Assembly: GCA_964586145.1 (NCBI GenBank)
Contig: CAZPHH010000009.1
Coordinates: 5,912 to 69,911 of the forward strand
DNA: 64,000 nucleotides
Origin: an uncultured Phycisphaeraceae bacterium
GTDB taxonomy: Bacteria; Planctomycetota; Phycisphaerae; UBA1845
Reading direction: 5' to 3'
The notes under the pieces are model-generated. The model searched no databases and was not told where the DNA came from. It saw nothing but the letters and a program-made list of their open reading frames with translations. Below are positions 17,934 to 41,300 of the stretch, piece after piece. Position 1 is the first letter of the stretch. Each line of letters opens with the position of its first letter. The translations under genes and the position numbers were made by a program.

Positions 17934-18520
17934 ATCGCACCTTCATCCACACCCACGTGGCCCAGTTTCTCCTTCAGACGCTGCCGGGCCCGCATCAGGC
18001 GAACGTTCACGGTATTGGGTCGCACTCCGAGGATTTCACCCACACGCTCCACCGGCAGGTCCTCCAGGTACCGCAGGACGATGACCTCACGGTACGCGAC
18101 GGGCAGTTGGCGTATGGCGTCACGCACGACCGCGGTTGCGTCCCCATCGTGACGATGCTCGCCGGACCCAAACTCGGCATCGGGCGTCGCTTGCCGGAGC
18201 AGCCATAACCACCTCATCCGATGCCGTTTGCGACACTGATTCACAGTCAGGACAGTCAGCCAGGTGGAAAGTCGGCAGTCCCCGCGAAAACGAGCCCGAT
18301 GGGTCCAAACCGCCAGGAACACGTCCTGAACGATATCCTCCACCTCGCCGGACCAGCCCACCAGCCGATAGGCCAGACGAGCGACGTGGCCCTGGTGGGC
18401 CGTCACAAGCCGAGCGAAGGCTGTGGCATCTCCGTCGGCACAGGCCGACCAAAGCCGCGTCTCCTCACTGGCCGTAACATCCACCCGTATTCCACCCGTA
18501 ATGACCAGGGTCCCGGTCAT
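17930..18520 (-). CDS. ECF-type RNA polymerase sigma factor
   Basis: Region 2 (EDIVQDVFLAVWTHRARFRG...STWLTVLTVNQCRKRHR) and region 4 (VIVLRYLEDLPVERVGEILGVRPNTVNVRLMRARQRLK). ATG 18520 is preferred over the TTG at 18571. Confidence 0.85.
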   Translation of the reverse strand: MTGTLVITGGIRVDVTASEETRLWSACADGDATAFARLVTAHQGHVARLAYRLVGWSGEVEDIVQDVFLAVWTHRARFRGDCRLSTWLTVLTVNQCRKRHRMRWLWLLRQATPDAEFGSGEHRHDGDATAVVRDAIRQLPVAYREVIVLRYLEDLPVERVGEILGVRPNTVNVRLMRARQRLKEKLGHVGVDEGAI

Positions 18521-18594
18521 GACCACCCTATTAGACCCGGACCAGGGCGGGAGATGACAGAGAATTCCCAAGGCGGCGGGCCGGCAGGCAGGCT

Positions 18595-19323
18595 TCAGGA
18601 TGGGATTGCCGCGAGGGCATCGCGGATTTCGCGGAGGACGGCGTCGTGCCGGGGGGTCCAGGCCCGGGCGGGTCGGGATTCGGCCTCGTCGTCGCCCAAC
18701 CCGGCGGTTTTCGACCCTCGGAGGCGGTCCAGGATGAGCGTACGGACGTGTTGGGGGTCTTGGATGCCTTCGATCAGCCCCTGGTTGGTGACCTGGAAGC
18801 CTTTCTCATGGGAGTCACCGCCCGCGCCGGCCGTCTCGACAACCACATCTGCGATGGCGAAGTGCCGCTGCACCGGGCCCTGCGAGACACGGATGTTCTG
18901 GACGTTTTCAAAGGTGATCGTCACCTCGCGGATGACCCAGACGCCTCGCCGAATGCGAAGGCTGCGCCGCGTCATGACGTACCAGGTAGTGTCGTACCGC
19001 AGGTGCAGCGCCACGAACACGATAATGTCCGGCACAACCGCCAGAATGAAGGCCACCGGAAACAGCAGAATGCCCAGCCAGGGGACGAAGACCGTCAGGA
19101 CGATCCAGCCGACGAGGATGGCCACGTCCAGCGGCAGCAGGCCGAGCCAGAACCAGAACTTGAGATACCGCAGGAAGCCCGGGGCGGGCTGAAACGTCTC
19201 GATGACGTCACCCGGCTCCACGGGCAGCGTCGGCGGTTCTTTCGGCACGCGGAACCAGTCGACGAGCACGCGCCAGACGCCCTGGTAGATCCACTGCGAA
19301 GCATGCTCCGTTCGGCCGCTCAT
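18595..19323 (-). CDS. bPH_2 (YdbT-like) membrane-flanked PH-domain protein
   Basis: TM hairpin followed by YVMTRRSLRIRRGVWVIREVTITFENVQNIRVSQGPVQRHFAIADVVVETAG. The ATG at 19323 overlaps the upstream stop (ATGA). Confidence 0.7.
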   Translation of the reverse strand: MSGRTEHASQWIYQGVWRVLVDWFRVPKEPPTLPVEPGDVIETFQPAPGFLRYLKFWFWLGLLPLDVAILVGWIVLTVFVPWLGILLFPVAFILAVVPDIIVFVALHLRYDTTWYVMTRRSLRIRRGVWVIREVTITFENVQNIRVSQGPVQRHFAIADVVVETAGAGGDSHEKGFQVTNQGLIEGIQDPQHVRTLILDRLRGSKTAGLGDDEAESRPARAWTPRHDAVLREIRDALAAIPS

Positions 19324-19838
19324 GCCTCGGCCCTCCTCTGCCTCGCCAGTCGGCGCACTTCGTCGCGGATTTCGCAAAGGACCTTCAGGGTCTCGTCCCC
19401 ACCGTCACCCGCGTCGGCCGGTGTCTCCGGGCTTCCTTCTCCCCTGGCCCCGCGCATCTGCGCGTAGAGGTAGTCTCGCAGAGCTTCCGCCAGCAAAATG
19501 CCCTCAATGGTCATCTCCGCCCCGGCCGACCCGGACGCAGTCTGGACGGAAATCGTGGCCAGGCCCAGCCAGCGGTGCAGGATGTTCCGGGTCACGTGGA
19601 TGTCCTGGATTCGCCGGTACGTCAAATAGATTTCGCGGCGAAACAGGACGCCCCAGGACATGGAGACGCCCTTGTCGTCAAAGCGGTACCGAAGCGTGTG
19701 GTACTTGCACCAGAGAACGATGATCACCACCGGAAAGGCCACGGTGGTCAGCAGGGACACGAGAATGTAGTAGGTCATCAGCACCGGGTCGGGGCGGGTG
19801 ATGGCCTGCGGATCGAAAGGCATTTGCGCACGTGACAT
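19320..19838 (-). CDS. bPH_2 (YdbS-like) membrane-flanked PH-domain protein
   Basis: TM hairpin and RYRFDDKGVSMSWGVLFRREIYLTYRRIQDIHVTRNILHRWLGLATISVQTAS. ATG 19838 has a GGAGG 7 nt upstream. Confidence 0.75.
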   Translation of the reverse strand: MSRAQMPFDPQAITRPDPVLMTYYILVSLLTTVAFPVVIIVLWCKYHTLRYRFDDKGVSMSWGVLFRREIYLTYRRIQDIHVTRNILHRWLGLATISVQTASGSAGAEMTIEGILLAEALRDYLYAQMRGARGEGSPETPADAGDGGDETLKVLCEIRDEVRRLARQRRAEA

Positions 19839-19902
19839 TACGGGGCCTCCGTTGTGGTCGGGCCGCAACGCCGAGCGATCATACCGTTCCTGCGATCAGA
19901 AT

Positions 19903-22900
19903 CTATGGCGCCGCCGCATCGCGGCCGTGTCCGCGCGGCTCTCCGCCGGCGAGCTTTGCGACCTCGGTGCCCGCCAGCAGGAACGCGCCGACCCCGTACG
20001 GCATAGAACTGTCAAAAGAGGTCGCCCCCGGCGCCGCGGCGGGCACCTGCACGAACCCGAGCTTGCCGTCCGGGTGGACGGAGGCCGCCAGGGCATCCCA
20101 CGCACTGCGAACGACAGGCGTGTATGTCTCGCGGTCCAGAATGCCCTGATTGACCCCCCACGCCAGGGCGTAGCAGAAGAAGCCGGTGCCGCTGGTTTCC
20201 TTTACGGCCGGATCGTCGGGATCCAGCAGGCTGGGATGCCACGTGCCGTCCGGCGTCTGCAGCTTCACGATGCGGGCCGCCATCTTCGTGAAGAGTTCCA
20301 CGTAGCGCGGGCGGTCGGGATAGTCCTCGGGCATCTTCGATAACACCCGCACCAACCCGGCCATCACCCAGCCGTTGCCGCGGCTCCAGAAGACCTTCTT
20401 CCCGTTGGCCGCGCGGCGGCCGAAGAAGCTCGAATCACGCCAATACAGCGATTCCTCGGCATCAAACAGATAGTCCGTCGTGTGCCACCACTGCTCGTTC
20501 ATGGTGTCCAGGTACTTCCGATCTCCCGTGACGGCGTACAGGTAGGCCAGCGACGGCGGGCCCATGAAGAGCGCGTCGCACCACGCCCACTCGCGGAGAT
20601 GGATGTTGTTCTTCCACTCCAGGGATTCGGTGTGGGGGCGAGCGGCGATCTGGTCGGCCACGTCTTGCCAGTTGGCGATCATCTCCGGGGACTTGTAAAT
20701 TTCGTAGAGCTCGGAATACGTCTGGCCGACGCAGTAATCGTCGGCGAAAAACGTCCGCGGCCCGATCTTCCACTCATTCTCCTCGCCGATCGCTTTCATG
20801 GCCTCGTAATATCGCCGGTCGCCCGTGTGGTGGCCGAGAGCCATCGCGCCGGCATAGAAGGCGCCGTTGATCCAATCGGTCTTGCTGACGGGCAGTTCCT
20901 GCGTGAGTTGCCAGTCCGCCACCTGCCGCATGAGGGCCTCGATCGCCTCGGGGTCGCGTGCGGAACTGGGGCGGGTTTGGTGCATCATGATGGCCGTGCG
21001 GAAGTCGGTGTAGTGGCGATAGTCCCCATTCATCCAGAACAGGCCGGATGCGTCGGCCGGGTGGTTCCGGGCGACGAACGGCCGAATGTTGTGCCTCGCG
21101 GAGTTCCCGGTGATGTGCTCCGATCGCCAGGTCCGGCCCAGGTCGGCCGTGGTCCAGCGTTCGATCTCGAAGCGGTCGTTCCGTCGGCGTGAGAGATACA
21201 CTACGGACGGTTGCGTGTGATCCAGCACCACGCCGCCCGAGTAGTGCGGCTCTCGCTCTCGCTCGCCCTTTGGGGTCTGGGGAAACCACGGACCGGCCCA
21301 GGTAATCTCGTTGTCGATCCACCGGCTGCCGTCCCACGCCGCATAGCGGTAGCGGTGATCCTCTTCCGTGGGGCAGGCCGCGTATACGAGGATCGGACGG
21401 CCGTTCGCGTCCAGCGCGAGGTCCCACACCCAGGCGCGTGCGTTGCCGTGGGCGGCCGCGTCGTACACCTTGTCGGCCTGCGACGGTTCGAATGGAAGAT
21501 CGGCCAGGGCCGCGATTTGGCTGCCGTCGGCCCGGTGAAAGGCGCCGTCATGGTAGCAGGCGTAGTAAACGCTGTTGAGCGGCTCATTTCGCGGGTGCCC
21601 GTCGGTGAAGATGAGGTGGATTTTCTTCCGGCCATCGGTGGCGATTTTGACGTAGGGGCGGTTCCCTTGTGTGTTCTCCTTGCGCGACAGCACCGTTCCG
21701 AGCGGCTCCCAGGACTCACCGTTGTCGCGCGACCGAGCCCAGTTGGGTTTGAAATTGTCGCCTCTCCAGAAGAGGTAGATCGTGTTGTCCTCTTCCGTCA
21801 GAAGAACGGGATTGGGATACGTAACGCTCTTGTTCGGCCGGGGCCCCGTGTGGATGGGCAGAGCGCGTTCCTCGCTCCACGGCTCCAGCGCCTTCGGATT
21901 GCTGCACACGCGGGCGAGCATCTCGTCGCCGCCGTGACGGGAGTAGAAAGCCATGAGCTTCCCGTCGGGCAGAAACAGCAGCGACGGGTTGTCGTGATCG
22001 TCCCGCTGCAGCTTCTCGTGGAGCGTGGCCACGCGGGGCGTCCGGCCGGCCGGGTTGATGCACCCCACCTGAACGGAGCCGTCAGTGCTGAGCCAGCCGA
22101 TGTACGTCCGTCCGTCGTGCCAGACGGCCCTGGGATCCGCAAACCAGCACCACGCGCCGCCCGGGGTGACGACGGAGAACGAGCCGCCGGGCGGCGCATC
22201 GCTTTTGAGCCTGGCCGAGGCCGGGGCAATGAGCATGGTCACCCGGGCCTTCTCAACGGGCTGGGTCAACTCGATTCCCACCCGGGTGGGCTGATCCGGT
22301 ACCCGAAGGTTTTCGTGGATGGCCTCCGGGCGGATTTCGAAGGGGCTGCCTTCCACGGCGATGCGCACTCGAACGGCCGCCTTCTTCCCCAGGATGAGCA
22401 CTTCATCGGGCGCGATGCGTTCACAATGCCCGAACGTGATCAGGGCGTCGGCGAACCTCTCGGGCCCCCGAAAGACGACCTCGTCCACGATCTTCAGGTG
22501 GCCGTCGCCCTGGCGGGAGTACTCGAACGCGCGATGCAGCTTCTCCAACTGCGGCACGTCGTAGGCCGAGGTCAGGTCCAGGACCAGGGTGTCGCTCTGT
22601 TCCGTGAAGTCCGTTCGAAGCACGCGGCCCTGCGCCTCCGCACCCGTCCGTTGAAGCTGACCGGCCACGACGGGGACCGGGTGGCCGAAGGAGTTCAGGG
22701 CCTTGCTGTCGTACCGCCCGCTGCCGAAGGTCCGCGCGGTGTACACCTCCGCTCCCAGCTCGGCAAGGACAATCTCTTTTCCGACCGCCACCACGTATGA
22801 TCCGACGTCATTGTGGTTGTGGTGCTCGGCGTTGTGCCCGCCCTTGAGGGCCACCCCCATTTTCGCGGACGATGCGACGCCTGGCCGGGCAATCAGCACG

Positions 22901-31397: not shown

Positions 31398-32195
31398 GTG
31401 ACTACGCGGGATCGTCAGACAGAGATGTCCGCCTACCTGGCCGAACACGGATACGCATCCATTTCTGACCTCATGGCCCGGTTTGCCATCTCGGAATCGA
31501 CCGCGCGCCGTGATCTGCAGGAGATGCAGCAACGGGGGCTCCTACGTCGGACGCGCGGCGGCGCCTACTACGTCGGGACTCGAGAGCATCCGCTGAGCTA
31601 CGCCATCCGGGAGGGCCGGTTCACCCGCGCGAAAGAGGAGATCGGGCGTGTGGTGGCCGAGATGGTGCGGGATGGCGACTCGCTGATTCTCGACGGCGGC
31701 ACGACGACGTATCAGGTCGCCCGGCGGCTGCGGGGGCGACCGTTGCAGGTGGTTACGAATTCTCTGCCCATCGCCAACCTCCTCGGGAATGCGCCCCAGA
31801 CCGAATTGGTCTTTCTCGGCGGCTACGTCATGCCGCAGGCGGGCGTCGCACTGGGACCGCACGCCGAGAACATGCTGCGCTCGCTCACCGTGCGGATGGC
31901 CATCATGGGGACGGCCGGCATCACCGAGGAGGGGCTGTTCAACTCGCATCTGCTGATGGTGGAAGTGGAACGGTTGATGATGCAATCGGCGGAAGAGGTC
32001 GTGATCGCGGTGGACCACTCGAAGTTCGGGCGCAAGTCCATGGCCAAGCTCTGCGAGCTGGGTGAATTCCGGCACCTCGTCAGCGATGACGGACTGGAGG
32101 CCCGCTGGGTGAACCTGCTGGAGTCGTGCGGCACGGAGGTTCGGCTCGCCTCCACGGCCGACGGCGAGGACGACGACCCGGGAGAAACGCCATGA
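31398..32195 (+). CDS. DeoR-family transcriptional regulator
   Basis: N-terminal wHTH (ISDLMARFAISESTARRDLQEM) and a C-terminal DeoR sugar-phosphate sensor domain (LILDGGTTT...VVTNS). GTG start. Confidence 0.85.
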   Translation: MTTRDRQTEMSAYLAEHGYASISDLMARFAISESTARRDLQEMQQRGLLRRTRGGAYYVGTREHPLSYAIREGRFTRAKEEIGRVVAEMVRDGDSLILDGGTTTYQVARRLRGRPLQVVTNSLPIANLLGNAPQTELVFLGGYVMPQAGVALGPHAENMLRSLTVRMAIMGTAGITEEGLFNSHLLMVEVERLMMQSAEEVVIAVDHSKFGRKSMAKLCELGEFRHLVSDDGLEARWVNLLESCGTEVRLASTADGEDDDPGETP

Positions 32196-32872
32196 CCCAG
32201 ACCGCCTCGCAGTCCAAGCCGGACCGGGCGCGGATTGAACGCATCGTGCGGGAAATCGTCGCGGACCGTTTCGAACCTCGGCACACGGCCGGCCCCTCGC
32301 AACTCGTTGTGAACATTTCAGCCCGCCACCTGCACATTTCGCAGGAACACCTGGAGCATTTGTTCGGTCCCGGTGCGGAGCTGACCCCGTTCAAGCCGCT
32401 GTATCAGACGGGAGAGTTTGCGAGCGACCAGACGGTGGACCTGGTGGGCCCGCGCCGACGCATCCTGGCCAACGTGCGGATTCTGGGGCCCGTCCGACCG
32501 GCCACACAGATTGAACTGGCTTTTACGGACGCGGTGGGACTGGGCATCGACGTGCCGGTTCGCATGAGCGGCAATCACGAGGGCACGCCCGGCTGCCTGG
32601 TGCTCGGTCCGGCGGGCCGGCTGGAACTGACCCAGGGGGTGATCCGCGCGCAGCGACACGTACACATGACCCCGAAGGACGCGGAGCATTACGGCGTCCA
32701 GGCGGGCGATTCCATGACCCTGATTGTCGAACACGCCACGTGCGCCACGACGCTGCAGGGTGTTATCGCCCGGGTGCATCCAAGCTTCAAGCTCGAGGTG
32801 CATATCGACACCGACGAAGGCAACTGCTGCAATCTGGCGCAGGCAACGCACATACGCCTGGTGAAGGCGTGA
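32192..32872 (+). CDS. pduL: phosphate acyltransferase PduL (PTAC) with N-terminal encapsulation-peptide-like helix
   Basis: Two PduL repeats (VNISARHLHISQEHLEHLFG and VIRAQRHVHMTPKDAEHYGV). N-terminal amphipathic RIERIVREIVADRF. ATGA overlap with deoR. Confidence 0.9.
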   Translation: MTQTASQSKPDRARIERIVREIVADRFEPRHTAGPSQLVVNISARHLHISQEHLEHLFGPGAELTPFKPLYQTGEFASDQTVDLVGPRRRILANVRILGPVRPATQIELAFTDAVGLGIDVPVRMSGNHEGTPGCLVLGPAGRLELTQGVIRAQRHVHMTPKDAEHYGVQAGDSMTLIVEHATCATTLQGVIARVHPSFKLEVHIDTDEGNCCNLAQATHIRLVKA

Positions 32873-32932
32873 CAGACGTTCACGAGATACGGCCTGGCCG
32901 GGCAACGAAACACGGCCGACGGAGAAAGTGAT

Positions 32933-33238
32933 ATGGCAACGATTCAGGCATTGGGAATGATCGAGACGAGGGGGCTGGTGGCCCTCTTCGAGGCATCCGA
33001 CGCCATGCTGAAGGCAGCCAGCGTGGAGATGCTTGGCTGGCGAAAGGTCGGACGCGGCATGGTCACCAGCTTCATCGCAGGCGACGTGGCCGCGGTGAAA
33101 TCGGCCGTGGCCGCAGGGGAAGCCGCCGCCGCCAAGGTGGGAGAAGTGGTGGCCGTGCATATCATTCCGCGGCCCCACGACGAGTTGTCGGGGCTGTATC
33201 CCGACCGCAGCAAGGTGAAGAAGGGCGCAGGCAAGTAG
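32933..33238 (+). CDS. BMC-H shell protein (PF00936-type hexamer), Arg in pore motif
   Basis: ALGMIETRGLVALFEASDAMLKAA...GDVAAVKSAV...IPRPH. The pore loop is KVGRGMV instead of the usual K-I-G-S-G. Confidence 0.93.
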   Translation: MATIQALGMIETRGLVALFEASDAMLKAASVEMLGWRKVGRGMVTSFIAGDVAAVKSAVAAGEAAAAKVGEVVAVHIIPRPHDELSGLYPDRSKVKKGAGK

Positions 33239-33323
33239 GCAATCACGGCTCGGCCCTTCGGGCGCGGCCCGGCGTTGTGTCGTCCGGTGGGCGCCCGGAG
33301 CGTACCAGGCCCGGAGATGAACC

Positions 33324-33593
33324 ATGGATCAGGCAATCGGACTGGTGGAGACCGTCGGCGCGAATCCGTCCATTCAGGCGGCGGACGCCATGTGCAAGGC
33401 GGCAAGCGTGACGTTGGTGGGCAGTGTGGAGATCGGCAGCGGGTACGTCACCACGATCGTTCGCGGTGACGTGGGCAGCGTGAAAGCCGCGGTGGATGCC
33501 GGGGCGGAAGCCGCCAATGCAGCCGGGGAGCTGGTCAGCGCCCACGTCATTCCGCAGCCGCACGAGGACCTGATGGCGGCGATGATGGGGTAG
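33324..33593 (+). CDS. BMC-H shell protein
   Basis: [24 protein letters not shown]...[22 protein letters not shown]...IPQPH. Confidence 0.93.
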
Positions 33594-33609
33594 TTGCCCG
33601 CGCGGCGTT

Positions 33610-34779
33610 ATGGAAACCATGAACGTACTGGTCGTCAACATCGGCAGCACGTCCTTCAAGTTCCGCCTGTTTGACATGGCGGACGAGACGGTCCTGGCGC
33701 GCGGCAGCGTGGAGGGCGTAGGCAAGCCCGATGCGGCGGTCACGATCCGCATCGGAGACGACCCGCCCGCGGTCACGCATCAGCCGGTGCCGGACCAGGC
33801 GGCAGCCGTCGCCATCTGCACGGGCGGACTGCCCTGCCGCATCGACGCGGTGGGCTTCAAGGCCGTGCATGGCGGATCGATCGCGGACCCGACGGTTGTG
33901 ACGTCTGACGTGCTGCGCGTGATGGAGGAGTTCGCGGACGCGGTGCCGGCGCACAACCCGCCGTACGTCGCCGCGATGCGGGCGTTTCAGACGCGGATGC
34001 CGGAGGTTCCCCTGGTGGCGGCGTTCGAGACGGGCTTCCACCAGACGATCCCACTCACGCGGACGACCTTCGCGGTTCCGCACGAGTGGCGGACGGAGTT
34101 CGGTGTCCGGCGTTACGGTTTCCACGGGGCCTCGCACCGGTACATCGCCGTACGGACCGCCGAACTGCTGGGCCGGCAGGACCTGCGGGTCCTCTCGTGC
34201 CACCTCGGCGGCAGCAGTTCCATCTGTGCCATCCGGGACGGTCGCAGCGTGGCCAACAGTTTCGGCATGACGCCCCAGTCGGGACTGCCGCAGAACAATC
34301 GCGTGGGCGATTTCGACGCGTACGCCATGCTGCTGGTCCGGGCCCGAACGGGAATGGACCTGGATGCGATGCTCACGGCCATGGCCGGTGAGGGCGGGCT
34401 TCTGGGCATCAGCAGGCTGACCAACGACATGCAGAAGTTGGTGGAGGCAGCCCAGGCCGGGCACGCGGGCGCGGAACTCGCCCTCGGCGTTTTCGTGGAA
34501 AGCGTACGGCATTTCATCGGGGCGTACCTGTTGGCGCTGGGCGGGCTGGACGTGCTCGTGTTCACCGGCGGCATCGGGGAACGATCGCCCGAGGTGCGGC
34601 GGCGGGTGTGCGCGGGCCTGGAGTTTGTGGGCATTCGGCTGGATCCCGCGCGGAATGAAAGGGGCGGCGTCGAGGCCACGGTATCGGCTGACGGCGCTCC
34701 CGTCCGCATCCTGGCGATGCAGACGAATGAGGAGTTGATCGTCGCCCGGCAGACGAAACAGGTGCTGGCGACGCGATGA
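33610..34779 (+). CDS. ackA: acetate/propionate kinase
   Basis: VLVVNIGSTSFKFRLF, HNPPY, FHGASH and VFTGGIGE motifs of the AckA family. No terminal extension. Confidence 0.9.
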   Translation: METMNVLVVNIGSTSFKFRLFDMADETVLARGSVEGVGKPDAAVTIRIGDDPPAVTHQPVPDQAAAVAICTGGLPCRIDAVGFKAVHGGSIADPTVVTSDVLRVMEEFADAVPAHNPPYVAAMRAFQTRMPEVPLVAAFETGFHQTIPLTRTTFAVPHEWRTEFGVRRYGFHGASHRYIAVRTAELLGRQDLRVLSCHLGGSSSICAIRDGRSVANSFGMTPQSGLPQNNRVGDFDAYAMLLVRARTGMDLDAMLTAMAGEGGLLGISRLTNDMQKLVEAAQAGHAGAELALGVFVESVRHFIGAYLLALGGLDVLVFTGGIGERSPEVRRRVCAGLEFVGIRLDPARNERGGVEATVSADGAPVRILAMQTNEELIVARQTKQVLATR

Positions 34780-34842
34780 GTGAGCATTCGGGGCCGCCCC
34801 GCTTTGCGGGCCTGGTTCCTCTGAGAACGACCAAGCAAGGAG

Positions 34843-35124
34843 ATGGTTATGGCAAGGCAGGCACTGGGCTTGATTGAAACGCGGGGCCTTATCCCGGCGG
34901 TGGAGGCCACGGACGTGGGGCTGAAGGCGGCAAACGTCACCTTCGCCGGCGCTCGTCAGACCGGTTCCGGATTGATCAGTATCAGTCTGGTGGGTGACGT
35001 GGCGGCAGTGCGAGCGGCCACAGAGGCCGGTGCTGCGGCGGCCGCACGCCTGGGGGAGGTGATCTCGGTCGAGGTGCTCTCGCGTCCGCACGACGAACTC
35101 GAAAAGATCATGCCGAAGAAGTAG
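34843..35124 (+). CDS. BMC-H shell protein
   Basis: ALGLIETRGLIPAVEATDVGLKAA...TGSGLISISLVGDVAAVRAA...LSRPH. Confidence 0.93.
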   Translation: MVMARQALGLIETRGLIPAVEATDVGLKAANVTFAGARQTGSGLISISLVGDVAAVRAATEAGAAAAARLGEVISVEVLSRPHDELEKIMPKK

Positions 35125-35155
35125 CGCTGCCTCGGCCTCAAACGGGAGTGAACCC

Positions 35156-35479
35156 ATGTTCATCGGCAGAGTGACCGGCCACGTCGTGACCACGCAGAAG
35201 GAGCCGAGCATCGCCGAAGTGAAGCTGCTCGTGGTGGAGGCTTGCAACGTGGAGGGGCCCGGCGGCGCTGGGCTCAAGCCGACCGGGCGGGTACTCGTCG
35301 CGATCGACTCGCTCGGGGCAGGCGTGGGCGAATTCGTGCTGGTCACGCAGGGCAGCTCGGCCCGCATGACCGAACAGACCAAGACGATGCCTGTCGACGC
35401 GGTGGTGATCGGCATCATCGATGCGGTGCGGCTGCAGGAATGCGTGCTGCGGCGAGCGGACGGCACCCTCGGCGGGTGA
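35156..35479 (+). CDS. BMC-P vertex protein (EutN/CcmL family) 1
   Basis: MFIGRVTGHVVTTQK...LVAIDSLGAGVGEFVLVTQGSSAR is a typical PF03319 pattern. Confidence 0.9.
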   Translation: MFIGRVTGHVVTTQKEPSIAEVKLLVVEACNVEGPGGAGLKPTGRVLVAIDSLGAGVGEFVLVTQGSSARMTEQTKTMPVDAVVIGIIDAVRLQECVLRRADGTLGG

Positions 35480-35514
35480 CGCCACTCCACAGGCGTCGCA
35501 GACGGAAGTGAGCC

Positions 35515-36963
35515 ATGGCGACAACAGGCAGAAAGATGGATGAGACGCTGATCGCGGATGTGGTGAGCGCAGTGCTGGCCCGCCTGGGACCCGTTCCGGC
35601 GGTCCAGACGCCGCCCGCCAAGAGCGAGCCTTCTCCCGCCGGCCGGTTCGGCATCTTCCATGACGTCGACGCTGCGGTGAAGGCGGCCACCCAGGCCCAG
35701 CGCCAGTTGGCCGACGGCACCCTGGCCATGCGGGAAGCGGCCGTGGAGTGCATCCGCCACGTCATGCGACGCGACCGCGACGAACTCGCCCGCATCGAGT
35801 TTACTGAGACGAAGATGGGTCGTCTGCCCCACAAGCTCGCCAAACTCGACCTGGCGGCGACCGTCCCGGGCGTGGAAATGCTGCGCACCGAGGCCGTCAG
35901 CGGCGATCACGGGCTGACCATCACGGAATACGCCCCCTACGGCGTGATCGGCGTGGTGACCCCGGTCACGCACAGCATTCCCACGGTGGGATGCAACGCC
36001 ATCATGATGATCGCGGCCGGCAACAGCATGGTCTGCAACCCTCACCCCTCCGGGGCGAAGTGCGCCGTGGAGGCCGCCCGCCGGTTCAACCGAGAGATCG
36101 TACAGAGGATCGGAATCGACAATCTGATCTGCCTGATCGAGAACCCTACGCTGGAGAGCGCAGACCGCATCTTCCACCACCCCGGCATACGGATGCTCTG
36201 TGTGACGGGCGGACCCGGCGTGGCCAAGGCCGCGCTGGTGTCGGGCAAACGGGCTGTCGTGGCCGGTCCGGGCAACCCGCCGGTCGTGGTGGACGAGACG
36301 GCGGACATCGAGAAGGCCGCGGCGGGCATCATCGAGGGCGCCGCCTTTGATAACGACCTGCTCTGCATCGGCGAGAAGGAGGTCTTCGTAGTGCGGTCCG
36401 TGGCCGACGCCCTGATGGCCGCGATGGAACGTCACGGCGGGCACCGCCTGACACCGGCCGATCTGGACCGGCTGGCACAGGCCGTCCTCCACAAGGACGA
36501 GAAGACGGGCCACTACCATCCGAAGAAGGAATTCGTCGGGCAGGACCCGCAGGTGCTGGCCGAGACGATCGGCGTGCGGGTGGCGGCGGACGCACAGGTG
36601 CTGTTTGCCCAGACCACCGAAACCAATCCGTTCGTTCCGTGCGAGCAGATGATGCCCGTGCTGCCCATCGTTCCGGTGGCGGACGTGGACGAGGCCATTG
36701 CCAAGGCCGTGCACTACGAGCACGGATTCCGACACACGGTCATGATGTGGTCACGGAACGTGGACAACCTGACAAAAATGGGCAAGGCCAGTGACGCCAC
36801 CATCTTCGTGAAGAACGGCGCCTGCCCGGCCGGGCTGAGCGTCGGCGGCGAAGGATACGCCTCGTTTTCCATCGCCTCCCCCACGGGTGAAGGCGTCACC
36901 AGCCCGCTTTCGTTCACGCGGGCGAGGCGCTGCGTAATGGTGGACAATCTGCGCATCGTGTAA
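35515..36963 (+). CDS. CoA-acylating aldehyde dehydrogenase (PduP/EutE-like) with N-terminal encapsulation peptide
   Basis: N-terminal ETLIADVVSAVLARL helix plus a Pro-rich linker. ALDH core with catalytic-Cys context FDNDLLCIGEKE, as in BMC AldDHs. Confidence 0.9.
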   Translation: MATTGRKMDETLIADVVSAVLARLGPVPAVQTPPAKSEPSPAGRFGIFHDVDAAVKAATQAQRQLADGTLAMREAAVECIRHVMRRDRDELARIEFTETKMGRLPHKLAKLDLAATVPGVEMLRTEAVSGDHGLTITEYAPYGVIGVVTPVTHSIPTVGCNAIMMIAAGNSMVCNPHPSGAKCAVEAARRFNREIVQRIGIDNLICLIENPTLESADRIFHHPGIRMLCVTGGPGVAKAALVSGKRAVVAGPGNPPVVVDETADIEKAAAGIIEGAAFDNDLLCIGEKEVFVVRSVADALMAAMERHGGHRLTPADLDRLAQAVLHKDEKTGHYHPKKEFVGQDPQVLAETIGVRVAADAQVLFAQTTETNPFVPCEQMMPVLPIVPVADVDEAIAKAVHYEHGFRHTVMMWSRNVDNLTKMGKASDATIFVKNGACPAGLSVGGEGYASFSIASPTGEGVTSPLSFTRARRCVMVDNLRIV

Positions 36964-36980
36964 GAGACCGGATAGCGAAC

Positions 36981-37250
36981 ATGCTGCTGGGCACCGTGGA
37001 AGGACATGCAACCTCGACCGTCAAGCACCGCTCGCTGCGCGGCGTGAAGCTCGTGCTGGTGCAGCCCGTGCGGTCGATGACCGCGGAGCCGGTGCTGGCC
37101 GTGGACCGCATCGGGACCGCCGTCGGAGACGTGGTGATGATTTCCAGCGACGGCAAAGGCACGCGGGAGTTCGTCGGCGACCCCACGTCCCCCGCCCGCT
37201 GGACGATCGTCGGGATCGTGGACAATACAAAGGACCTGGCATTGGCATGA
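36981..37250 (+). CDS. BMC-P vertex protein 2
   Basis: MLLGTVEGHATSTVKH...LVLVQPV...LAVDRIGTAVGDVVMISSDG. Confidence 0.9.
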   Translation: MLLGTVEGHATSTVKHRSLRGVKLVLVQPVRSMTAEPVLAVDRIGTAVGDVVMISSDGKGTREFVGDPTSPARWTIVGIVDNTKDLALA

Positions 37251-37879
37251 GCCGCCCGCTGATCACCGTCAAGACCCTGATCGCCCAGTCACGCGAGGGC
37301 GCGGCCATCAACCTGCCCGCCGACGCGATCATCACGCCGGCCGCACAGGACTGGCTGCAGGCCACCCGCCTGCCCGTGCGTCGAAACGGCCCCGGCGCCC
37401 GCGCCCCGGCGTCCAGCCCCACGGTATACCTGATCGGCGACGCCCAGGAGCCCACCCTGCAGACGCTGCTGCCTATTCTGGAGCGGCAGCACGAGTCGCT
37501 GACCTTCCTGCCCTGCCAGGGACACCTGGCCGGCTGTCTCGATGCGGTTCGCCGCATGTGCGACGGCCTTTCTCAGTGCTCGCAGCGCCGCGGCATCGTC
37601 GTCGTCCGAGCGGGGAGCATCGTGAGTTGCGTGGCGAATCGGAATCCCAAGGTGCGCGCGGCCGTTCTGACCCGGCCGTCGGACCTGTACGGCCTGCAGA
37701 CAAACCTGGACATCAACGTGTTGGTTCTGGAGCAGGAGCGGCTGTCGCTGCGGCAGATGCAGTCGAGCATCGAGACGTTCCTGAGAGGCAAGGGCTCCCT
37801 GCACCCCGCGGTGGAGGCGGCGTTGTCCGGGACTGCAACGGCCAGCGCAAGCTGCATCCCCTGCAACGGAGCGAAATGA
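37247..37879 (+). CDS. BMC-associated protein: EutQ-N-terminal-like segment fused to a degenerate RpiB/LacAB-like domain
   Basis: N-terminus RPLITVKTLIAQSREGAAINLPADAIITPAAQDWL resembles the EutQ N-terminal segment (from memory). The C-terminal half aligns by hand to RpiB (GIVVVRAGSIVSCVANRNPKVRAAVL...INVLVLE), but the catalytic Cys/Thr/His positions are substituted. ATGA overlaps at both ends. Confidence 0.6.
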   Translation: MSRPLITVKTLIAQSREGAAINLPADAIITPAAQDWLQATRLPVRRNGPGARAPASSPTVYLIGDAQEPTLQTLLPILERQHESLTFLPCQGHLAGCLDAVRRMCDGLSQCSQRRGIVVVRAGSIVSCVANRNPKVRAAVLTRPSDLYGLQTNLDINVLVLEQERLSLRQMQSSIETFLRGKGSLHPAVEAALSGTATASASCIPCNGAK

Positions 37880-38169
37880 CCATGCGCGTGGGAAACGTGA
37901 TCGGCACGGTGACTCTCTCGCAGCGACTCGAAAACGTGGCCGGCGGCCGGTTCCTGGTCGTGCAACCGCGCGGGCTGGCCTCGCTGCGTGACGGGTCGCC
38001 GAGCACCGCCGAGCCCATCGTGGCGTACGACGAGATCAGCGCGGGGATCGGGTCCGTCGTCTCGATATCCGAAGGTCGCGAAGCGGCCATGCCGTTCCAC
38101 CCGCGCCTGGTCCCCGTTGACGCGTACGTGGCGGCCGTCCTGGACCACGTGGAGGCCGGGCAGTCGTAA
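37876..38169 (+). CDS. BMC-P vertex protein 3
   Basis: MTMRVGNVIGTVTLSQR...FLVVQP...VAYDEISAGIGSVVSISEG. Lies inside a longer out-of-context track ORF (37558..38169). Confidence 0.9.
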   Translation: MTMRVGNVIGTVTLSQRLENVAGGRFLVVQPRGLASLRDGSPSTAEPIVAYDEISAGIGSVVSISEGREAAMPFHPRLVPVDAYVAAVLDHVEAGQS

Positions 38170-38188
38170 TTGAAGTGAGGCAACAACC

Positions 38189-39379
38189 ATGGCGACGAAA
38201 TCGCTCGACATCAAGCTGGCCCGAATCAAGGCCGACCGGAACTGCAGGGAGTTCATCATCGCGGACGCGAAGGATGCGGACATGGCGTACGGCATCGCGT
38301 CCCCGGGCAAGAGCCCGGAAATGCATGCCCACGAAGCCCGGTTCCGCGGCCTGGAAGACTATCGCGAGTGTATCCGGCAGGTCGTTCACCACGGCCGCGT
38401 CGACGTCATGCTGATGTCCGCCCATACGAACTCCATTCTCACCGTGCGCGAGAAGCTGTTCGAGAACTCCCACGTGACACCCGCCGCCCGGGCCAACGAC
38501 ACCACGGACATCCACGTGGCGCGCCAGGGCGTGTACACGGGCGAACCCTCCCGGCCATTCGAAAGCACGACGATCGATCACATCCAGTGCGGCTATATCG
38601 ACTGCCGGGAGGAGGACCGCGCGATCGGGGCCAACCTCGGGCTGTACAGCGTCACGTTCAACAACGACGTGGAGCTCGACCGGCAGACGATGGAGCGATA
38701 CAAGGCGTTTCGCATTGAGGCGGAGCGTAAGGGCTTCCGGCACTTCCTGGAGGTGTTTGACCCCAACAAACCACAGAACCCCATCGACCCGACCCAGCTC
38801 GGCGGATTCATCAACGATATGGTCGTGCGAATGCTCGCCGGCGTTCCCGACGCCGGCCGGCCCCTTTTCCTCAAGATGGTCTACCACGGCCCGAAGTTCA
38901 CCGAAGAGCTGGCCAATTACGATCCGAAGCTCGTGGTGGGCGTTCTGGGCGGGGCGTCCGGCACCACCTACGACGCGTTCAAGCTGATCGCCGAGGCACA
39001 GAAACACGGCGCCCGTGTCGCCCTCTTCGGCCGCAAGATCAACAACGCCGAACACCAGTTGGCCTTCGTCGAGATGCTTCGCCGCATCGTGGATGGCGAC
39101 CTCTCGCCGGAAGAAGCCGTCCACGCCTACCACGGCGTGCTCCAGGCCCTGAACATCCGCCCCCATCGCCCGCTGGAGGACGACCTGCAGCTCACGAACC
39201 CTGCCGTGGGCCACAGCGGCGGACACACCATCAGCCTGCCGCCCGCACGGCGTGACGGCGCCGCCCGCGCCCCCTCCGGCCGCAAACCCCGCACCCAGCC
39301 GGACTTCTCCAAGATGACCAGCGAGGAGCGTCTGGCCTACCATCGCGGTCGGCTCCGCGGGATCGGAACGTGGTCATGA
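38189..39379 (+). CDS. class I aldolase-like TIM-barrel protein (DeoC/LacD/FbaB family) with ~60-aa C-terminal extension
   Basis: Hand alignment to YihT/LacD-type aldolases: GFRHFLEVFDP ~ strand with Glu, PLFLKMVYHG ~ Schiff-base Lys strand, VVGVLGGASGT...ALFGRKI ~ phosphate-binding end. There is a disordered P/R-rich tail ending in a short helix. Confidence 0.65.
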   Translation: MATKSLDIKLARIKADRNCREFIIADAKDADMAYGIASPGKSPEMHAHEARFRGLEDYRECIRQVVHHGRVDVMLMSAHTNSILTVREKLFENSHVTPAARANDTTDIHVARQGVYTGEPSRPFESTTIDHIQCGYIDCREEDRAIGANLGLYSVTFNNDVELDRQTMERYKAFRIEAERKGFRHFLEVFDPNKPQNPIDPTQLGGFINDMVVRMLAGVPDAGRPLFLKMVYHGPKFTEELANYDPKLVVGVLGGASGTTYDAFKLIAEAQKHGARVALFGRKINNAEHQLAFVEMLRRIVDGDLSPEEAVHAYHGVLQALNIRPHRPLEDDLQLTNPAVGHSGGHTISLPPARRDGAARAPSGRKPRTQPDFSKMTSEERLAYHRGRLRGIGTWS

Positions 39380-40704
39380 CGACCCTCAGACTCGATACCT
39401 CGGGTCTGCTGGATCGCATCGCGGCCAACGGCGTCGTCGGGGCCGGCGGGGCCGGCTTCCCCACGCACGTGAAGCTGGCCGGCAAGGTGGACACGGTCAT
39501 TCTGAACGCCGCCGAGTGCGAGCCGCTGCTCCACAAGGACAAGGAAATGCTGCGGCGCTACCCGGAGCAGGTCCTGGCCGGTCTGGTCGCGGCAGGTGAA
39601 CTGACGGGCGCGCGGGAGGTCATCGTCGGCGTCAAGGGCAAGTACGCCGAAGTGATCCGCCAAGTGCGTCCTCTCATGCCGTCGCACGGCCGCGTCGTGC
39701 CTCTTGCTGACGCCTATCCGGCCGGGGACGAGTTTATCCTGGTCTACGACGTGACGGGCCGGATCATTCCGCCCGGCGCCATTCCGCCGGTGGTCGGATG
39801 TGCCGTCCTGAACGTGGAGACCGCATACAACATCGGTGCCGGAAAGCCCGTTACAGAGAAGTTCCTCACGGTCGCCGGCGCCGTGAAGCGGCCGGTGACG
39901 CTTCGGGTCCCGGTGGGAATTCGCCTCGCGGAGGCCATCGATCTGGCCGGTGGGGCCACCGTTGACGATGCCCGCGTCCTGATCGGCGGAGTCATGATGG
40001 GGCAGCTTGCCGCTTCGCTCGATGAGCCCGTGACCAAGACCTGCGGCGGGCTCATCGTGCTGGGGCCGGACCACATGCTCGTGCGGCGATACGAGAGCCC
40101 GTGGAAGGAAATCGCCCGCATCGGCGCCGGCGCCTGCGACCAGTGCACGTTCTGTACGGAATTCTGTCCGCGCTACCTGTTGGGCCACCCGATCGAGCCG
40201 CACAAGGCGATGCGGTCGCTCGGCTTCGTAGAGGATCGCGAGCCGACGGTCATCGGCACGCAGTTCTGCTGCGAGTGCAACCTCTGCACGATGATCGCCT
40301 GCCCGGAGGATCTGGACCCCAAGAACGTCTGTACGCACAACAAGCGCCGGCTCGCCGCTGAGGGCCGCCAGTGGAGGGTCGACGCCAATCCGGACCGCGC
40401 CCGATTGCACATGGACGACCGGCGCGTTCCGATCAGCCGGCTCATCCGGAAGCTCGGGCTGTCGCAGTTCACGAACGAAGGTCCGCTGGAAGAGCCGGGC
40501 TACCGACCGGCCCGCGTGGTTCTGCCCCTCAAGCAACATGCAGGCGCGCCGGCAGAGCCGGTTGTGTCTTCCGGGGCCCGCGTGCGCCTCGGCGACGTGG
40601 TGGCGCGTCCGCCGAAGGACGCGCTGGGCGCCGTGATCCACGCCACCATCGACGGGGTCTGTGAGGTGTCGAAAGGCCAGGTAATCATCGCGGCGGCCGG
40701 ATGA
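39376..40704 (+). CDS. PduS/RnfC-like flavo-iron-sulfur oxidoreductase
   Basis: GAGGAGFPTHVK nucleotide motif, SLBB-like middle, two ferredoxin motifs CDQCTFCTEFCP and CCECNLCTMIACP. The ATG at 39376 overlaps the aldolase stop (ATGA). Confidence 0.85.
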   Translation: MTTLRLDTSGLLDRIAANGVVGAGGAGFPTHVKLAGKVDTVILNAAECEPLLHKDKEMLRRYPEQVLAGLVAAGELTGAREVIVGVKGKYAEVIRQVRPLMPSHGRVVPLADAYPAGDEFILVYDVTGRIIPPGAIPPVVGCAVLNVETAYNIGAGKPVTEKFLTVAGAVKRPVTLRVPVGIRLAEAIDLAGGATVDDARVLIGGVMMGQLAASLDEPVTKTCGGLIVLGPDHMLVRRYESPWKEIARIGAGACDQCTFCTEFCPRYLLGHPIEPHKAMRSLGFVEDREPTVIGTQFCCECNLCTMIACPEDLDPKNVCTHNKRRLAAEGRQWRVDANPDRARLHMDDRRVPISRLIRKLGLSQFTNEGPLEEPGYRPARVVLPLKQHAGAPAEPVVSSGARVRLGDVVARPPKDALGAVIHATIDGVCEVSKGQVIIAAAG

Positions 40705-41300
40705 CGTTGGAGCAATCACACATGCTCGAATCCGTGGGAATCATCGAATTGACCAGCGTGGGCATCGGATACGTCGTGCAGGACGCCATGCTCAAGGCGG
40801 CGGACGTCCGGCTGGTCCTGGGCCGCACCATCTGCTCCGGCAAATACATCATCGCGGTCACCGGCCAGGTGGCGGCCGTCACGGCCGCCGTTGAGAATGG
40901 CCTGGAAGCGGCGCCGGATGGCGTCATCGATCACTGCATCATCCCGCGGATTCACCCGACCGTATTCCGGGCGCTGGGCGGCGGCGTGGAATTGCACGTG
41001 CCGCACGCCGGCGTGGACGCGGAACACCCGCCCAAGGCGCTCGGCGTCGTCGAGACGTTCTCCGGCGTCAGCGTATTGGAGGCAGCCGACGCCGCGGCAA
41101 AGGCCGCAAACGTCGCACTCTTCCGCATCCACATGGCCATGGCCCTGGGCGGCAAGGGCTACATGCTGATGGCCGGCACGGTGTCGGACGTGCAGGCGTC
41201 CGTTGCGGCCGCCGCGGAAATCGTACGCAGGAAGGGCCTCCTCGTCTCCGCCGTTACCATCCCCGGCCCCTCGCGCGAACTGTTCTCCGAATACCTGTAG
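40701..41300 (+). CDS. BMC-T tandem-domain shell protein (PduT-like, Fe-S pore Cys conserved)
   Basis: Two BMC domains. Aligns along its length to PduT, including the RTICSGKY context of the pore [4Fe-4S] cysteine. ATGA overlap with the PduS-like gene. Confidence 0.9.
   Translation: MTLEQSHMLESVGIIELTSVGIGYVVQDAMLKAADVRLVLGRTICSGKYIIAVTGQVAAVTAAVENGLEAAPDGVIDHCIIPRIHPTVFRALGGGVELHVPHAGVDAEHPPKALGVVETFSGVSVLEAADAAAKAANVALFRIHMAMALGGKGYMLMAGTVSDVQASVAAAAEIVRRKGLLVSAVTIPGPSRELFSEYL

Follow-up and report, generated by a model that had tools for sequence, protein, structure and literature searches.

A PvmL-like protein with a degenerate RpiB fold as a candidate shell-tethered adaptor in a Phycisphaerae microcompartment locus

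What does a protein with the fold of a sugar-phosphate isomerase, stripped of the catalytic residues of that family, do between two pentamer genes of a bacterial microcompartment (BMC) locus? The question is raised by a 64,000-nucleotide stretch of DNA from an uncultured Phycisphaeraceae bacterium (assembly GCA_964586145.1, contig CAZPHH010000009.1, positions 5,912 to 69,911 of the forward strand), referred to here at its full length as the window, in which the open reading frame (ORF) 37247-37879 (+) encodes the 210-residue protein under study, the target. A preliminary description, made from the letters of the window, saw in this protein a EutQ-like N-terminal segment fused through a linker to an RpiB/LacAB fold without catalytic residues, and proposed for it a structural, scaffolding or sugar-phosphate-binding role. 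Having computed the domain anatomy, the catalytic loss, the conservation pattern and the synteny of the target, we hold it moderately probable that this protein is an adaptor for packaging in a PVM-type BMC, tethered to the shell and without catalytic function. The gene and its parts are as follows:

37247..37879 (+): target gene, a PvmL-like protein composed of an N-terminal module, a linker, a degenerate RpiB/LacAB domain and a cysteine tail (ORF, PF02502, AlphaFold2 [AF2] model)
37256..37387 (+): N-terminal module (N-module), residues 4-47, beta-alpha-beta-alpha-beta (AF2, family conservation, hidden Markov model [HMM] and hhalign comparisons)
37388..37420 (+): Pro/Ala/Gly/Ser-rich flexible linker, residues 48-58 (AF2, conservation)
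37421..37831 (+): RpiB/LacAB-fold domain without the catalytic residues, residues 59-195 (AF2, Foldseek, hhalign)
37832..37876 (+): C-terminal tail modelled with low confidence and bearing a CxxC motif (C203, C206), residues 196-210 (AF2, conservation)

The translation of 210 amino acids first quoted for 37247-37879 is reproduced exactly. A pseudogene or a chance ORF is ruled out, as the frame is intact, its GC content at third codon positions (GC3) of 0.88 is like that of the neighbouring genes (window GC = 65.6%), and it recurs in conserved form across 37 species-level genomes.

The C-terminal part of the protein has the RpiB/LacAB fold that had been proposed for it. In the AF2 model, built on 26 homologs with a mean predicted local distance difference test score (pLDDT) of 84, the RpiB-like alpha/beta domain (residues 59-195) exceeds a pLDDT of 90. 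When the model is compared with the PDB by Foldseek, the top 45 matches are all RpiB/LacAB structures (E down to 6e-7, 13-20% identity, and template modelling scores of 0.65-0.8 with the target structure as the basis of normalisation), and the matches that follow are receiver domains at E >0.02. PF02502 matches residues 99-181 with 33.3 bits, above the gathering threshold of 24.7, in an alignment that spans model positions 42-124 of 138 only (about two thirds), and the NCBIfam RpiB models are missed widely (23.5 bits versus a cut-off of 135). A profile of the family, whose statistics derive throughout from 140 representatives, aligns by hhalign to E. coli RpiB with a probability of 94% and an E of 1.6e-7. 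The register of this alignment equates target residue i with RpiB residue i-54, is confident over residues 96-182, and agrees with that obtained when the target is aligned by phmmer to C. thermocellum RpiB (3he8). The true isomerases share with the target both the fold and the core motifs ANK...IRAA...N(V/I)L, and differ from it in the catalytic residues, whose counterparts in the hhalign register are:

RpiB Cys66 (base): Val120 in the target
RpiB Thr68: Ala122 in the target
RpiB His99 (ring opening): Asn153 in the target
RpiB Asn100 (substrate binding): Leu154 in the target

The loss of catalytic residues claimed in the preliminary description thus holds; the replacements named there (Arg, Gly and Thr) are neighbours of the true ones (Val, Ala and Asn), from a register that was one or two positions off. 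The counterpart of RpiB His10, on a strand outside the profile alignment where Asp9 too is replaced by eye, was placed by eye at Ala66 or Gln67, and those of the phosphate-binding Arg133, His134 and Arg137, in a helix outside the confident alignment, were placed by eye at Ser184, Leu185 and Ala188; none of these eye-aligned positions is conserved in the broad family. Across the 140 representatives the catalytic columns vary freely: column 120 holds Thr in 55, Val in 31, Ala in 26, Ser in 18 and Cys in 6, the His99 column is variable (Glu, Ser, Gln, Thr, Asp and others), and the Asn100 column is hydrophobic throughout. Only the equivalents of RpiB N77, R83 and N103, which we take to lie outside the active site in RpiB structures, are kept as invariant or nearly invariant residues. 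Residue loss combined with free variation is a pseudoenzyme signature. Public records name several close homologs (P0016, P0020, P0022 and P0024) 'ribose 5-phosphate isomerase RpiB', which is probably a misannotation because all the catalytic residues are lost.

It could be argued that the domain still handles a sugar phosphate. The target would then be an enzyme or ligand binder with an RpiB active site rebuilt for a sugar phosphate of a 6-deoxyhexose pathway, comparable to M. tuberculosis RpiB with its Glu in place of Cys, a reading that we regard as decidedly unlikely. It draws on the retention of the RpiB fold at high model confidence, on the conservation of Cys128 (130 of the 140 representatives) and of the R/K132, R137, N131 and N157 columns, on a pathway context of sugar-phosphate cleavage, and on reports that the RpiB family is substrate-promiscuous and tolerates a changed base (PMC11585597). 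However, every known catalytic column varies freely, neither an acidic residue nor a Cys is fixed as an alternative at positions 120-123 of the beta3 loop, and most members lie under the PF02502 gathering threshold and are therefore annotated "hypothetical". Moreover, the conserved Asn, Arg and Asn are kept in true RpiBs as well, away from the active site, and the RpiB-like domain is less conserved than the N-module. Sugar-phosphate binding, one of the roles initially proposed, looks unlikely because Arg133, His134 and Arg137 appear, by eye, to have been lost from the C-terminal helix. The other part of that proposal, a non-catalytic structural or scaffolding role, fares better, as it has published precedents in the ribose-5-phosphate isomerase-like protein (RPI) of SPU-type loci and in helices H1/H2 of EutQ, and would be the role of the target as well.

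Conservation in the family is concentrated elsewhere. The AF2 model of the N-module contains helices at residues 8-17 and 31-40 and strands at 21-24 and 44-47, with a pLDDT of about 80, and this is the best-conserved segment of the protein, with a mean pairwise identity of 63% in the close family (A1) and 34% in the broad family (A4), compared to 48-51% and 18-33%, respectively, for the RpiB-like domain. Its residues T30, P31, A33 and D35 show no or almost no variation, forming the motif T30-P31-x-A33-x-D35 within the general pattern '(V/I)(I/V)T...(I/L)TPxAxD'. Because the identity of the N-module exceeds that of the RpiB-like domain and these four residues hardly change, selection appears to act on the N-module and not on the active site. 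An NCBIfam scan of all 140 members detected the following relatives of the module:

TIGR02536, ethanolamine-utilisation protein ('eut_hyp'): 105 of 140 members, best E 1.4e-6, at the C-terminal ~40 residues of the model (162-205 of 207)
PduM (PF15953, TIGR04493), by two models: 19 and 17 of 140 members, best E 0.0015, at the C-terminus (positions 107-153 of 153)
EutT model: 13 of 140 members, best E 0.0017, at the N-terminus
EutQ model: 3 of 140 members, best E 0.0096

In one family member (P0061), it is residues 60-108 that align to positions 107-153 of 153 in the PduM model. Using the E. coli genes eutQ (19303-20004) and eutT (18503-19306; locus L001) for comparison, and with E values computed for a proteome of 4300, the HMM of the module finds residues 4-45 of EutT at 8.7e-9 and residues 3-36 of EutQ at 0.049, the best of 404 decoy ORFs reaching 0.56. 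The corresponding hhalign scores are 40.6 for EutT and 23.0 for EutQ, against 8.3 +/- 1.8 (maximum 16.6) for 100 shuffles; residues 2-46 of EutQ span the whole module, with a P of 3.8e-4 that places them about 8 standard deviations above the shuffles. The EutQ-like N-terminus that had first been noticed is thus similar to EutQ beyond what shuffling produces, although it lies nearer to EutT, TIGR02536 and PduM than to EutQ. Taken as a whole, the N-module appears to be a wider BMC-specific element, homologous to the N-terminus of EutT and to the C-termini of TIGR02536 proteins and PduM, and more weakly to H1/H2 of EutQ.

None of the other proteins of the BMC locus carries the module. Pfam has no model of its own for it, since the EutQ domain covers residues 84-231 and PF01923 (Cob_adeno_trans) covers residues 94-245 of EutT; PF15953 (PduM) alone reaches it, with its C-terminal end. 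A 48-residue profile of the module, run against 5.8 billion sequences, returned six short ORFs only, the profile being too weak at that scale, and no described function of the module in EutT or in TIGR02536 proteins was found in the literature. For EutQ, it has been reported that residues 1-99 of the Salmonella protein suffice to target GFP to the organelle, that H1/H2 (residues 9-41) bind the shell proteins EutM and EutL, that H3/H4 bind cargo encapsulation peptides, and that deletion of the N-terminus separates shell from cargo (PMC12487888). PduM has been described as a structural BMC protein of low abundance, built from an N-terminal signal helix and a body of Rossmann-like type; when it is lost, core and shell come partly apart and the compartments grow larger, and its homologs have been stated to be confined to Pdu loci (PMC11463388). 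A module common to PduM and to the family of the target, as the alignments indicate, contradicts this last statement.

The closest surroundings of the gene, and the operon to which they belong, are the following:

36981..37250 (+): upstream BMC-P (pentamer), PvmK position (PF03319, E 1.7e-21)
37876..38169 (+): downstream BMC-P (pentamer), PvmM position (PF03319, E 6.8e-18)
31398..41300 (+): whole BMC locus, a single-strand 10-kb operon (Pfam scan, junctions)

Both neighbours are PF03319 (EutN/CcmL) proteins, and both junctions are ATGA overlaps: the stop TGA of the upstream BMC-P (37248-37250) overlaps the ATG of the target (37247-37249), and the stop TGA of the target (37877-37879) overlaps the ATG of the downstream BMC-P (37876-37878). 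The sandwich between two BMC-P genes noted in the preliminary description is thereby confirmed. The order along the operon is DeoR, PduL, two BMC-H, AckA, BMC-H, BMC-P, AldDH, BMC-P, target, BMC-P, a 396-residue protein, a PduS-like flavo-Fe-S protein and a tandem BMC-T, where the Pfam scan identifies AldDH as an acylating aldehyde dehydrogenase, PduL as a phosphotransacylase and AckA as an acetate kinase.

The same gene order is found in related loci of 37 species-level genomes, all of them Planctomycetota and the closest Phycisphaerae, with the homolog located between two BMC-P genes and downstream of AldDH. Among the informative GTDB loci, a BMC-P gene is the immediate neighbour of the homolog on its upstream side in 35 of 35 and on its downstream side in 34 of 34. 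The target has 27 close homologs, the nearest from metagenome-assembled genomes (MAGs) of Phycisphaerae (Planctomycetota), and a profile search of 1.8 billion representatives retrieved 631 proteins at E<1e-10, most of them 220-290 residues long. Most members bear an amphipathic helix (e.g., TIERMVREVL or IEQIVANVL) and a Pro/Ala linker in front of the N-module and the degenerate RpiB-like body. In other lineages such an extension, longer than 30 residues, precedes the module (110 of the 140 representatives), and its helix, a classical encapsulation helix, speaks for the adaptor reading. The encapsulation helix is missing in 24 of the 140, as it is in the target, which opens with MSRPLITV directly at the module and, overlapping a BMC-P gene, leaves no upstream room for it; all the Phycisphaerae loci examined are without it.

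In 20 of the 37 loci, the second flanking pentamer is followed by a gene for a FucA-like class II aldolase, which marks PVM loci as their signature enzyme; this aldolase stands after the third BMC-P in L016-L036 and L038. The proteins that occupy the slot of the target in the class II aldolase loci (L016-L036) are 27-34% identical to it by tblastn (E 1e-14 to 1e-25), and the profile search recovers Planctomycete forms bearing an encapsulation peptide (EP) at E ~1e-20. The BMC catalog names the genes of this region PvmJ (AldDH), PvmK and PvmM (special pentamers) and PvmN (aldolase), and lists PvmL as 'PF02441 Flavoprotein' with the EP model HMM02441_01.PVM (Sutter 2021 Supplementary Data 6). 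The consensus of this model, ..LIERIVREVLRRL.., matches the N-terminal helix of the EP-bearing family members, a helix that the target does not have. Considering the slot and its synteny, the homology to the slot proteins and the match of the catalog EP model within the family, the target is the Phycisphaerae, EP-less ortholog of PvmL, a component of Planctomycete PVM loci; this identity rests on Sutter 2021 Supplementary Data 6 together with synteny. Like the target, canonical PvmL occupies the operon slot after AldDH and PvmK and before PvmM, and consists of an N-module and a degenerate RpiB-like body. Unlike it, canonical PvmL carries an EP helix and is accompanied by a class II aldolase, whereas the target has no EP, has a Cys tail, and is accompanied by a class I aldolase-like protein, PduS and BMC-T. 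The PVM locus and PvmL are reportedly credited to work by Erbilgin in 2014. The literature reached offers no described function for PvmL, and looking in it for pvmL and associated gene names brought up nothing relevant.

According to published work, PVM microcompartments serve Planctomycetes and Verrucomicrobia in the breakdown of fucose, of rhamnose and of sugars derived from fucoidan. The locus studied here has the BMC-P triplet, DeoR, PduL, acetate kinase and AldDH of the PVM type in their conserved order, in a Planctomycetota host, and the 64-kb window contains no FucA-like class II aldolase (PF00596). Its assignment to the SPU type was also considered and rejected, given the PVM order and shell set, an AldDH-pentamer-PvmL-pentamer core common with the class II aldolase loci, and an aldolase-like gene with no PF01791/DERA match.

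The constancy of this slot would also suit a pentamer-specific assembly factor or chaperone, one that serves the two BMC-P paralogs (grey and orange clades) in vertex capping or size control and links no cargo. The invariant position between two BMC-P genes and the overlapping stop and start codons at both junctions speak for such a factor, as does the pdu operon, where pduM, whose product shares the module, lies directly upstream of the pentamer gene pduN. Further points in its favour are that grey and orange BMC-P clades always co-occur, a multiplicity that has been left unexplained (PMC8217296), and that the loss of PduM changes microcompartment size, with pduM edits being possibly polar on pduN (PMC11463388). 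Nevertheless, adjacency alone is no proof of physical interaction, and the genes for EutT, EutQ and TIGR02536 proteins are not known to be linked to pentamers. EutQ H1/H2 has been reported to bind shell proteins of hexamer and trimer type, EutM and EutL, and not a pentamer (PMC12487888), and SPU loci also have a BMC-P triplet, yet their RPI binds an aldolase (PMC11585597). A role confined to the pentamers is therefore improbable in our estimation, and the adaptor remains the preferred reading of this slot.

The two ends of the RpiB-like domain are flexible in the model. The linker, which had been recognised from its P/A/G/S-rich composition and is confirmed at residues 48-58, is predicted to be disordered (pLDDT <50 at residues 49-55) and is the least conserved segment of the family (12-21% pairwise identity). 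The tail ends with SCIPCNGAK and is also predicted to be disordered. C206 is kept in 24 of 26 close homologs, while Cys90 and Cys105 are conserved only in the window-type subfamily. A Cys-bearing tail (CxC or CxxC, with up to 4+ Cys) is present in 11 of 11 related loci with PduS and BMC-T and all but missing from the 18 tabulated loci that lack this pair, 17 of which are canonical PVM loci with class II aldolase; the longest such tail, in one family member, reads PCGCTGCSHGGTCGSSGPCQTGGQC. The co-occurrence of the Cys tail with the PduS/BMC-T pair hints at a metal or redox add-on. As a side observation, the tails in those 18 loci often end with IEQGGGRADW. In the window, the PduS-like protein and a tandem BMC-T (39370-41300, +) are joined by an ATGA overlap; the former contains Complex1_51K, SLBB, RnfC_N and 4Fe-4S domains, and the latter a PduT-like TICSGKY pore cysteine. 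This pair is found in window-type loci and was not found in the canonical PVM loci fetched.

Carried further, these cysteines would make the target a redox or metal accessory, in keeping with its 'flavoprotein' label, whose tail acts with the PduS-like protein and the PduT-like BMC-T in electron transfer. To the distribution of the tail, the subfamily-specific C90 and C105 and the pore Cys of BMC-T can be added the PF02441 entry of the catalog and an HHpred link between the PduM body and flavin-binding Rossmann folds (PMC11463388). Against this, the Pfam families listed as matched at E<=1 by the 140 members include PF02502 (104 members) and not PF02441, and no flavoprotein fold is among the significant PDB fold matches of the target. 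In addition, the Cys features belong to one subfamily, so that they cannot explain a role of the whole family, and a disordered tail could add to the adaptor role without replacing it. Such an accessory is unlikely as the primary function of the target. The PF02441 identity as such is rejected on the same Pfam matches; isolated N-modules do not match PF02441 at E<=10 either.

If the target is an adaptor, which protein would it bring to the shell? The best candidate is encoded next to the third pentamer:

38189..39379 (+): 396-residue 'hypothetical' protein, predicted class I (Schiff-base) aldolase of the DeoC/LacD fold (AF2, Foldseek)

This protein has at least 8000 homologs, and the 120 listed are 61-97% identical, all unnamed or 'hypothetical' and without a Pfam domain. 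The Pfam scan of the protein itself gave no match, PF01791 included, and searches of the PDB with its sequence or profile gave nothing, so that the fold search alone placed it. The AF2 model (pLDDT 71) is a (beta-alpha)8 TIM barrel with a disordered stretch and a conserved C-terminal helix at residues 378-389, and Foldseek relates it to ADH synthase, LsrF, LacD, archaeal FBA and YihT at E ~1e-8. Its GG...GRKI phosphate-binding motif aligns to LsrF residues 224-284, and its invariant Lys229, within FLKMVY, corresponds in position to IIKTYY of LsrF; we infer that Lys229 is the probable Schiff-base lysine. Window-type loci have this gene straight after the third pentamer, in the slot of the class II aldolase, and have no class II enzyme; canonical PVM loci have it immediately downstream of theirs. 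In two further loci (L012 and L015) a class II aldolase is located upstream on the opposite strand beside DeoR, and the 396-residue gene is missing, which suggests that the two aldolase types can substitute for each other. On the strength of its model, the 396-residue protein may be both a candidate partner of the target and an unrecognised signature enzyme of these organelles.

The closest precedent for such a pair is the SPU system. It has been reported that SPU RPI (pfam02502), with a linker of 75 residues, lacks the catalytic Cys, that the protein tested has negligible ribose-5-phosphate isomerase activity and that it joins DERA, the signature aldolase, in a stable complex of ~1:1, and its authors propose that it has lost its enzymatic function and aids core packaging (Dwyer, Sutter & Kerfeld 2024, PMC11585597). 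SPU RPI and the target are both BMC-encoded RpiB-family proteins with an N-terminal targeting element (a putative one in the target), a flexible linker, an RPI fold and no catalytic Cys, and both loci carry a triplet of BMC-P genes, AldDH, a phosphotransacylase (PTAC) and PduS. All the SPU RPIs have Asp at the Cys66 position and keep His99 (PMC11585597), whereas the target has Val120 and Asn153 and its family no fixed residue at either position; because His99 is also lost, the target goes further in residue loss than SPU RPI. Targeting in SPU RPI is described as relying on one amphipathic helix, where the target has a folded module of ~45 residues, and the SPU aldolase is DERA (pfam01791), in contrast to the FbaB/LacD-type protein (no PF01791 match) of the target locus and the class II enzyme of canonical PVM loci. 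Even so, since an aldolase gene adjoins the pentamer beside the target family in both window-type and canonical PVM loci, the pairing of a dead RpiB with an aldolase recurs in PVM-type loci as in SPU.

The other precedents concern the module. EutQ resembles the target in the pattern and length of this segment, in its two equivalently placed helices, in its N-terminal position followed by a flexible region and in its BMC context, but it also has the cargo-peptide helices H3/H4 and a C-terminal cupin (PF06249)/acetate-kinase domain, while the target has no PF06249 or cupin match. PduM is comparable in its ~45-residue module, Rossmann-like body and structural role in the BMC; in this case the module is C-terminal instead of N-terminal, the body is not detectably RpiB-like, and the matches are weak (best E 0.0015). 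EutT and the TIGR02536 proteins are the strongest relatives of the module, and their remainders, a cobalamin adenosyltransferase and an uncharacterised body, respectively, are unrelated to the target.

The model that would interconnect these elements is that the N-module docks on the lumenal face of the shell, as the shell-binding H1/H2 of EutQ do, while the flexible linker would give reach between the module and the RpiB-fold body. True RpiBs are dimers or tetramers. The body of the target, inert after the loss of the base, the proton shuttle, the ring-opening His and probably the phosphate-binding residues, would thus serve as an oligomerising platform for cargo. The most likely cargo would be the aldolase encoded beside the third pentamer gene, of class I here and of class II (PvmN) in canonical PVM loci, and the target would link this cargo to the shell in a manner modelled on the 1:1 complex of SPU RPI and DERA. 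The strict slot between two special pentamers and the overlapping codons suggest co-production, and perhaps a vertex-proximal site. In this scheme we infer shell binding by the N-module from EutQ, and the binding of cargo and the oligomerisation of the RpiB-like body would follow by analogy with SPU and with true RpiBs.

Several findings weigh against such an adaptor. The target is without the H3/H4 cargo-binding region of EutQ, which leaves cargo binding as a pure analogy with SPU, and the similarity of the module to EutQ is marginal (HMM E 0.049; 3 of 140 members). Furthermore, EutT, the strongest relative of the module, is an enzyme. The 396-residue candidate aldolase belongs to the FbaB/LacD branch and not to DERA, and is absent from L012 and L015. 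Finally, Cys128, Cys90, Cys105 and the Cys tail are left unexplained by a purely structural role.

A bolder version of the adaptor reading is possible, if rather doubtful: the module would be a widespread shell-attachment domain, present in EutQ, EutT, PduM, TIGR02536 proteins and PvmL, and the PvmL proteins would be vertex-associated linker pseudoenzymes that tether an aldolase of class I or class II. It is similarly speculative, within this version, that PvmL is made stoichiometrically with the grey and orange pentamers and that the Cys tail of the Phycisphaerae forms couples this hub to the PduS/PduT electron conduit. Were PvmL such a vertex-associated linker, the BMC-P triplet would gain its missing function, and PVM and SPU organelles would be unified as 'dead RpiB + aldolase' machines.

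PvmL has already been named as a PVM component, and the idea that a dead RpiB aids packaging has been published for SPU. What is new is the move of PvmL from "flavoprotein" to an RpiB-fold pseudoenzyme, the ~45-residue module common to PvmL, PduM, EutT, TIGR02536 proteins and EutQ, and the EP-less, Cys-tailed PvmL variant of Phycisphaerae with a cryptic class I aldolase alongside. If the adaptor role is true, the labels "flavoprotein" and "RpiB isomerase" would give way, for PvmL, to that of an assembly factor of non-enzymatic nature, a dead isomerase plus an aldolase would become a theme common to PVM and SPU organelles, and a portable, sequence-defined shell-docking module would become available for cargo targeting in engineered microcompartments. 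The naming of some members as RpiB could distort reconstructions of the pentose-phosphate pathway in Phycisphaerae MAGs.

Two further observations concern the enzymes of the operon. The start of PduL (32126-32872) is probably ATG 32192 and not GTG 32126, the former giving an ATGA overlap with the stop of DeoR. With this start PduL opens with the N-terminal amphipathic helix RARIERIVREIVADRF, and AldDH (35515-36963) opens with a similar helix, ETLIADVVSAVLARL. These N-terminal helices look like encapsulation peptides, of which the target has none.

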